DNA of 64,000 nt. Source: Escherichia coli (lineage in GTDB: Bacteria; Pseudomonadota; Gammaproteobacteria; Enterobacterales; Enterobacteriaceae). The DNA lies in assembly GCF_002854065.1 (NCBI RefSeq), contig NZ_CP024147.1; one strand, written 5' to 3'. A program made the position numbers. Shown one piece after another: positions 48,001 through 51,000 of this stretch; position 1 is the first letter of the stretch; every line of letters starts with the position of its first letter.

Positions 48001-51000
48001 CGCAGGGTCGGTAATTTTTCACTCAGAGCTTCAGGGTGTAAATAAAGACGCAACGTGGCTTCCAACGCCGCGAGGGTCATTTTATCCGCGCGTAATGCAC
48101 GCTTCAGCGGGTGGCTTTGCAGGCGGGCGATCATCTCTTTTTTACCAACAATAATTCCTGCCTGCGGCCCGCCTAACAACTTGTCGCCGGAGAAGCTCAC
48201 CAGACTGACGCCCGCCGCAATCAACTCCTGCGGCATTGGCTCTTTCGGCAAACCGTACTGGCTAAGATCGACCAGCGAGCCACTGCCTAAATCAGTCACT
48301 ACGGGAACATCCAGCTCTTTGCCGAGCGCCACCAGTTCAGCTTCGTCTATCGCTTTGGTGAACCCCTGAATGCTGTAGTTACTGGTATGTACTTTCATCA
48401 ACAGTGCGGTATTTTCATTCACCGCCTGACGATAATCATTCGCGTGCGTGCGGTTGGTGGTCCCTACTTCGTGTAGGGTGCAGCCTGCCTGACGCATAAC
48501 ATCGGGAATACGAAACGCGCCGCCAATCTCCACCAGTTCGCCGCGAGATACCACTACCTCTTTCCCGCTGGCAATGGCCGCCAACATCAATAACACCGCC
48601 GCCGCATTGTTATTAACGATACAGGCATCTTCCGCCCCCGTAATACGGCACAGCAACTGCGCCAGCGCACGATCGCGATGTCCGCGTCCGGCGTCGTCCA
48701 GATCGTACTCGAGGGTCACTGGCGAACGCATAGCCTGCGCAACGGCTTCCACCGCGGCTTCCGCCTGTAAAGCTCGCCCAAGGTTGGTATGCAGCACGGT
48801 TCCCGTCAGGTTGATCACCGGACGCAGCGCACTCTGCGCCTCTTTCGTCAACCGGGCATCGACTTCTTGCGCCCAGTTTTCACACCACGCAGGCAGCGTC
48901 TGGCTGCCACGAATCACTTCTCGCGCTTCGTCGAGCATCTGACGCAACAATTCCACCACGCGGGTGTGACCATAAGTATCACGCAAAGAAAGGAAGGAGC
49001 TATCGCGCAATAAGCGATCAATAGCCGGAAGTTGACTATAGAGGGAACGCGTTTCGGTTGTCATAGGAAACCTGGCTGATCAAGGCCCTCTCACACGGAG
49101 AAGAGCGTTTAACATAACCACGGATTGTAACGTGAGATGGGTCAGGAGGACATATCGCGCATCAAGCCTTTGGCGGTTCGGTGCGAGCAAAACTTTCGCG
49201 GCTAAACAGGTTTTCGACCAGTTTGACTAAGTGTGGGCGGTCGACACACCAACCTGGCGCAACGCGGCGGAAATTGAGATATCCGACGGCACAGGCAATA
49301 GCGATAGTCGCCAGATTGACCGTATCGGTTTTGAGTGTGCCATCGACCAGATATCCTTCCAGCACATCCAGACTGCGGTTGATTTTCTCCCGCTGGCGTA
49401 ACAATTCATCTTCAGACTGCTGCGCCGCTGGACGCGCCTGTTCACGCACCGATACCAGCCCGGCATCCATAATGCCATCCGCCAGTGCCTCAATTTTGCG
49501 CACCCGCAACGACTCCAGCGGATCGCGCGGCAACATCGCCGGAGCGACATTCATTAATTCAATATATTCAGCGATGATCGGCGAATCAAACCAGCATTCG
49601 CCCTCTTCGGTCACCAGCACCGGCACTTTTCCTAACGGGTTAAATTGCGCCACGCCGTTGTCCGCGTTATAGGGCAGTTCATTAATAAATTCGAAAGTTA
49701 TGCCCTTTTCTAACAACAGAATAGAAAGTTTGCGTACAAACGGGCTGGTGTAGCTACCGACGAGTTTCATGCCGAGTCCTTTGTGCGAGGAAAAATATCA
49801 GTATGGCTCAGGCTCACGCAAAACACAGGTGATATAAGTCTCAATGATCCAAATAAAGATAATGCATCCAGCTGGTCATTCTTAGCAGCACTTTTCGCAT
49901 CACCGAAACATGGCTGAAATGGTCGGAGTAAACTGCCACCTGGGCGTAAATGCCGTCGGGTAAGGCATCGATATCATCGTTAGGGTCCAGTTCAATGGTT
50001 CCCAGCACACCGTCCGTGCCGGGCACGACCGTTAATGATTGCAATACCCCCTGCGCCTGATAAGAACCGCCTGGCACGACAGGTAAAATACTGGTCAGTT
50101 TGCCGTGGAACACCTGCCCAGGTAGCGCGTTAAACACCACTTCCGCATCATCGCCAGGTTTCAGACGTAACAGCGAGTTTTGCCGAAATTGGGCGACAAT
50201 TTGCCGTTTTTGCTCGGGGATGAAAACCATCACCGGACGCAACGGCAAGGCAGCTGCGTATGTGCCTGGGCGGATCAGTACCTGAGTGACGTAGCCATTG
50301 CTTGGTGCGCGAATGACGGTCTGTTCAAGGTTATATTTTGCTTCTGTAAGTTGCGCTCTTAAGCTCACAATCTGCGATTGCTCGCCGTTGACCATACTGT
50401 CGAGCTGACTCTGGATCTGCGCCTGCTCCGCCACCGAGCCTTTCACTAACGCATCCTGCGCGAGGAAATTTTGCCGCGCATCGTCGATGTCACGTTCCGA
50501 GAACGGATTCACCGCCGCCTGGCTGCCTTTCAGATAACGTTGATAATTTTTAAACAGACGGTCGCGCTCCGCTGAAACCTGGGTGGTGTTGGCCTGCGCT
50601 TCAGTGAGCTGCGCGCGCAGCGTCTTTATATTATGCGTCGCCGTCATCAGGTCAGCCTGAAGTCTGTCAACTCGCGCCTGGTAACGAACCGGGTCGAGCT
50701 TAAAAAGCACCTCGCCCTTTTGAATAAGCTGATTATTCTTGTCAGTGACTTCAGTAACAATTCCCGTCACCTGTGGCGTGATGGGGATCGCTATCACTGC
50801 CTTTTGCGCGGTAAAAGTGTAAGGGTGGTTGTAGTTCATCAACAAAATCAAACCACTCACCAGAAACACGCCTCCCAGCGCCGCCGTCGCCAGCGTCCAC
50901 TGATTCACCGGAATGCGGAAGATTTTAAAGACCGCCCACGCCAACGCCACGTAAGTTAAAACAATCAATAGATCCATAATTAGATCTCCGGGAACGTGGA

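Follow-up and report, generated by a model that had tools for sequence, protein, structure and literature searches.

An Rhs-free (Rhs0) allele of the rhsA locus of Escherichia coli was reportedly described by Feulner et al. in 1990 (J Bacteriol 172:446), with an unrelated 32 bp standing in place of the 8,249 bp that K-12 carries there. The RhsA element of K-12 is an Rhs/YD-repeat polymorphic toxin locus composed of rhsA, the immunity-type gene yibA and orphan tips, and it lies between yibF and yibH. The same locus is 'position 10' in the Rhs survey of Jackson et al. (2009, BMC Genomics 10:584; PMC2935791), in which no rhs genes were counted in strains 536, APEC O1, CFT073, E2348/69, UTI89 and SMS-3-5, and position 10 was inferred to have arisen after the split from 'the pathogenic strains'.

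The stretch of DNA analysed here (64,000 nucleotides of E. coli contig NZ_CP024147.1, referred to below as the window) contains the site alone and none of the element. Its flanks, and the exchange of 8,249 bp for 32 bp, are those reported for the Rhs0 allele, with no difference in kind. The empty RhsA site is a common presence/absence polymorphism, already known and reportedly described in 1990. Locus and flanks are also those of position 10, which is missing from SMS-3-5 and the B2 strains and was probably gained later, within E. coli; that survey dealt with 20 strains and presented no junction sequence, whereas the junctions are given here at the level of single bases and traced through 5,426 genomes. 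The evidence set out below makes it very probable that window positions 49771-49840 are an ancestral, never-occupied spacer of the Enterobacteriaceae, in which, in other lineages, RhsA replaced 32 bp once and then spread.

The yibF-yibH junction

The six-frame ORF list places exactly 70 bp (49771-49840) between the start codon of yibF and the stop codon of yibH, in agreement with the spacing given in the initial annotation. On the left, yibF (49162-49770, minus strand) encodes a GST-like protein of 202 residues (Pfam GST_N/GST_C). On the right, yibH (49841-50977, minus strand, stop codon included) encodes an HlyD-family membrane-fusion protein of 378 residues (Pfam HlyD/CusB), and its upstream partner yibI (50980-51342, same strand) encodes a DUF3302 protein. 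ORFs, Pfam matches and the annotation of strain 100416 underlie all three assignments. The minus-strand direction is common to yibI, yibH, yibF, selA and selB, and the order selB-selA-yibF / yibH-yibI-mtlA is collinear with the surroundings of the element in K-12. The annotation was transferred by mapping the window to positions 118066-182065 (reversed) of the RefSeq-annotated record of strain 100416 (NZ_CM128593.1; human stool, Gambia), where the gene order is the same (selB-selA-yibF-yibH-yibI / mtlA-mtlD-mtlR) and to which window positions 49162-50977 are 100% identical. (The state of the junction is a matter of presence or absence, to which a test against chance is not applicable.)

Comparison with the occupied locus of K-12

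In K-12 MG1655, yibF and yibH are separated by 8,287 bp that hold rhsA, yibA, yibJ, yibG, yibS, yibW, yibV and yibU, with RhsA oriented opposite to yibH and yibF. BLAST alignment of the two loci yields a left block (window 47001-49807 with positions 3187-5993 of the K-12 record, L002; 98.9% identity) and a right block (window 49840-53000 with L002 14243-17403; 98.5%). The alignment thus breaks at 49807 and resumes at 49840. The placement of RhsA between yibF and yibH in K-12, as stated in the initial annotation, is borne out, and the alignment that had been proposed as a check puts the element inside the 70-bp spacer and not elsewhere.

Base-by-base reading of the junctions sharpens this picture. 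The spacer bases common to the window and K-12 are the 37 bp next to yibF (49771-49807, minus strand, 100% identical to K-12), which are kept in RhsA-bearing genomes, and a single C beside the yibH stop codon (49840), and no more. Between them lie 32 bp, TCAGGCTCACGCAAAACACAGGTGATATAAGT (49808-49839), that are confined to the empty allele; K-12 has 8,249 bp (L002 5994-14242) instead. RhsA therefore replaced 32 of the 70 bp, and there was no clean insertion. This amends the earlier view of the 70 bp as a candidate uninterrupted target: the short spacer is indeed ancestral (see the outgroups below), but it was not simply opened up, 32 bp having been exchanged for 8,249 bp.

What an attachment site or a transposon target would be expected to display (direct repeats, terminal inverted repeats, an adjacent integrase, transposase or tRNA) is not found at this site. 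The two K-12 junctions have no bases in common, and thus there is no target-site duplication. No terminal inverted repeats are present at the ends of RhsA, a repeat search finds no meaningful direct or inverted repeats at the spacer, the annotation of the K-12 element includes no integrase, and no tRNA is seen at the site. The sequence offers no recombinase gene, repeat or microhomology from which the mechanism of insertion could be read; a replacement of this kind is consistent with one illegitimate recombination event. (A 10-mer, GGTGATATAA, is common to the 32 bp and the left end of RhsA. It is probably there by chance, being neither collinear nor conserved in other Escherichia spacers.) Comparison with the K-12 rhsB locus shows that homology between rhsA and rhsB begins at the ATG, so that the 190 bp upstream of rhsA are RhsA-specific.

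Neither a tblastn search with RhsA, YibA, YibJ, YibG and YibV nor a sensitive blastn search with the entire K-12 element turns up any meaningful Rhs homology in the 64-kb window, and the earlier statement that this strain lacks RhsA at the locus can stand. Adjacent and collinear flanks, no Rhs homology, an unrelated 32 bp, and a counterpart in outgroups: all that would characterize an Rhs0 allele is found here.

The original state of the spacer

With the YibF protein as query, a survey of one genome per species yielded 55 loci. In both E. coli representatives, yibF is immediately preceded by a yibH gene that points the same way. E. whittamii, Escherichia sp. E1V33, Citrobacter amalonaticus, C. 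koseri, Kluyvera cryocrescens, Lelliottia, Pluralibacter, Huaxiibacter and further Enterobacteriaceae share this arrangement. The outgroup spacers measure 61-92 bp, with the exception of C. koseri (174 bp). In E. whittamii and Escherichia sp. E1V33 the spacer has the same length as in the window, 70 bp, and matches it with 94-96% identity, the 32 bp included. The 32-bp part taken separately is 88-94% identical in these two and in the second E. coli representative, the Escherichia alleles differing at 2-4 positions, and the C. amalonaticus spacer can still be aligned by way of GTCACCTG..TTTT and GAGCCATACT.

The obvious alternative is that the empty site is secondary, RhsA having once been present and then deleted, with the 70 bp as the scar. 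Rhs loci do decay, and Jackson et al. describe loss of Rhs in some strains. Moreover, Escherichia sp. MOD1-EC7003 (L008 1-2962) shows the left junction of the K-12 type and, after it, ~150 bp from the left end of RhsA, but the 2.9 kb available next to that junction contain no rhs core; they contain small ORFs, one of them an H-repeat-like DDE_Tnp_1_assoc fragment. Deletion, on the other hand, cannot recreate 32 bp that are missing from RhsA-bearing genomes, and these 32 bp have homologous counterparts in the spacers of E. whittamii and E1V33 and a recognizable one in that of C. amalonaticus. The window contains no Rhs fragment, and its junction is not made up wholly of sequence that occupied genomes possess. 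The short spacer could be restored only if an empty allele, ancestral in its own right, were imported by homologous recombination. A deletion scar is accordingly very improbable.

Since deletion of RhsA is unable to regenerate the 32 bp, the short spacer is, on the sequences compared, best taken as the original state and RhsA as derived, with polarity assigned by parsimony over the outgroups and not from a dated tree. The K-12-type left junction of MOD1-EC7003 also bears on the age of the replacement: it implies that the RhsA element may be older than E. coli or may have passed between species by recombination.

Alleles in the E. coli population

Among 5,426 complete E. coli genomes, yibF and yibH are contiguous (empty) in 1,521-1,523 (~28%), E2348/69 included. 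Junction-spanning queries detect the left junction of the K-12 type in 3,750 genomes and its right counterpart in 3,723, so that RhsA fills the site in ~69%. An unrelated serine-protease/fimbrial island occupies it in 144 (70 + 74; ~2.7%). In every non-contiguous genome sampled, homology ends at the same pair of positions, 49807 and 49840. Identity of the junctions in ~69% of genomes argues for a single ancestral event rather than for repeated insertions.

These counts also bear on the possibility that the empty site is an artefact of assembly, with a repeated Rhs element collapsed out. Rhs cores are long repeats, able to break or collapse short-read assemblies. The same contiguous 70-bp junction is, however, found in ~1,522 complete genomes, E2348/69 among them, and it includes the 32 bp that RhsA-bearing genomes lack; the probability of an artefact is negligible.

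What lies behind K-12-type junctions varies among genomes. Strain 1504D004 (L061 4654-11652), for example, has an rhsB-type C-terminal tip together with yhhH, and its yibA is shifted downstream and pseudogenized by an internal stop. This is C-terminal tip displacement of the kind described by Jackson et al.

Other occupants of the site

The island, of ~10-12 kb, comes in two forms, one found in 70 genomes (the SCU-387 type: SCU-387, MCJCHV-1 and an ST1193 isolate are examples) and one in 74 (the CREC-544 type), with coordinates L003 12195-22563 in SCU-387 and L063 4110-16363 in CREC-544. It encodes an S6-family serine-protease autotransporter (SPATE), a chaperone-usher fimbrial operon and helix-turn-helix regulators. 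The yibF gene of SCU-387 carries a frameshift. The 32 bp persist in both forms, though diverged: the junction segment (the 5' end of yibF and the spacer) is ~89% identical to the window. Their persistence in island alleles also speaks for the age of the 32 bp. At the corresponding place in E. albertii NBRC 107761 (L009 89-781, a short contig), a MOSC/YiiM-like gene replaces yibH, 57 bp upstream of yibF and in the same orientation.

Thus at least four states of the site can be listed (empty; RhsA; the S6-peptidase/fimbrial island in its two forms; the E. albertii MOSC/YiiM-like gene), and the right junction, 49840, is common to RhsA and the SCU-387-type island. Immediately before TCA, the right end reads CCAAGCCCCTTCCCCC in the SCU-387-type island, ATCTCCCCCTTCCCCC in the 1504D004 RhsA variant and CTCCCCCCTCCCCC in K-12. 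An 11-nt C-rich segment, CCCCTTCCCCC, directly precedes the yibH stop in 1504D004 (L061, about 12102-12112) and in SCU-387 (L003 22554-22564), where K-12 has CCCCCTCCCCC at the matching position (L002 14233-14243). One RhsA variant and an unrelated island accordingly share an identical 11-nt end, and the segment is found nowhere else in the window or in records L001, L002 and L003. These observations could be taken to mean that unrelated islands repeatedly use the base beside the yibH stop codon as a dedicated integration site, through a sequence-specific mechanism.

Several findings argue against this. No integrase, tRNA, attachment-site-like repeat or target duplication is seen. The left junctions are unequal (49807 for RhsA, 49835 for the island). 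The sister form of the island, CREC-544, lacks CCCCTTCCCCC and has another right junction, joining yibH at a TAA stop codon. A synthetic query for an empty allele bearing CCCCTTCCCCC finds none (best full-length identity 96.6%), and the 11 nt may be a leftover of RhsA from joining of the island into an RhsA-bearing recipient. A dedicated site must be rated improbable. On the simplest reading of these right ends, the SCU-387-type allele goes back to a recipient that carried RhsA, and the last 11 nt of RhsA survive in it. That the base at the yibH stop is a recurrent insertion point, and that CCCCTTCCCCC marks an end-specific joining mechanism not described before instead of an RhsA leftover, is a decidedly unlikely proposition.

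Sequence elements of the spacer

Read along the minus strand, the spacer and its bordering codons consist of TGA (the yibH stop), G, ACTTATATCACCTGTGTTTTGCGTGAGCCTGA, GCCATACTGAT, ATTTTTCCTCGCACA, AAGGA, CTCGGC and ATG (the yibF start). AAGGA (49781 to 49777), 6 nt ahead of the ATG, is the obvious Shine-Dalgarno sequence, or ribosome-binding site, of yibF. The motif GCCATACTGAT (49807 to 49797, minus strand) lies within the retained 37 bp, and the RhsA junction abuts it immediately on its outer side. Within it, CCATACT is nearly invariant across the aligned genera (Escherichia, Citrobacter, Kluyvera, Lelliottia, Huaxiibacter and others). The motif, through its CATACT, is possibly a weak -10 element for yibF, although a consensus scan calls no promoter in the spacer and a good -35 element is not found by eye. 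(A SELEX peak of Shimada et al. that is listed with yibF sits within rhsA and is irrelevant to the spacer.)

A consensus scan and RNA folding detect no terminator-like site in the spacer and no hairpin after yibH; the fold of the spacer RNA does not stand out from that of shuffled sequence (z = +1.05), and the spacer has no match in Rfam. In the absence of a detectable terminator after yibH, read-through from yibI-yibH into yibF is plausible in strains with the empty site.

Other features of the window

The paralogous yiaW/yiaV pair (about 40778-42243), which encodes DUF3302 and HlyD proteins, lies ~8 kb from yibI/yibH, and second yibH-like matches in other genomes (about 76-78% identity; L006, L008 and L010) are probably to this pair. 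When window positions 44000-56000 are used as a 12-kb query, the median number of matching places per genome is 24, many of them on plasmids. A short dispersed repeat must therefore lie within that segment, and it is probably of the REP type, in the mtlA-mtlD spacer around 53800-54100.

In the 100416 annotation, mapped onto the window, the yiaJ-sgbE sugar operon of K-12 gives way at about 34249-38813 to genes for an AraC regulator, an MFS transporter and a GH127 glycoside hydrolase, with a C-terminal IclR (yiaJ-like) fragment as its sole remainder. The aldB gene (about 42788-44326) is annotated there as a pseudogene with an internal stop. Accessory adhesin loci flank the conserved core on both sides: an operon for lpfA1-type long polar fimbriae where the window begins (1-4616) and, between yibL and lldP (about 57171-63174), a gene for a DUF3251 lipoprotein together with a 5.3-kb YadA-like trimeric autotransporter gene.

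Origin of the alleles and implications

The allele distribution can be accounted for by a single event. In the ancestor of K-12-type alleles, one illegitimate recombination would have swapped the 32 bp nearest the yibH stop for the 8,249-bp RhsA composite (the rhsA toxin gene, an immunity gene and orphan tips), leaving the 37 bp with the yibF translation signals untouched. The spread of the composite, and the polymorphism seen at present, would have come about by vertical descent and by homologous recombination of the flanks, as the identical junctions suggest. The window would then come from a lineage that has retained the original state and is for that reason without the RhsA toxin/immunity module here.

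For this strain, absence of the module from this locus is of little import beyond annotation, and the allele counts are a modest update of a fact reportedly known since 1990. The base-level coordinates of the ancestral site can serve as a reference for scoring or typing the presence and absence of RhsA. Where RhsA is present, the original sequence extends just 37 bp upstream from the yibF start; beyond it lies foreign DNA in the opposite orientation, and the opposite orientation of RhsA in K-12 is predicted to put yibF out of reach of yibH transcription.
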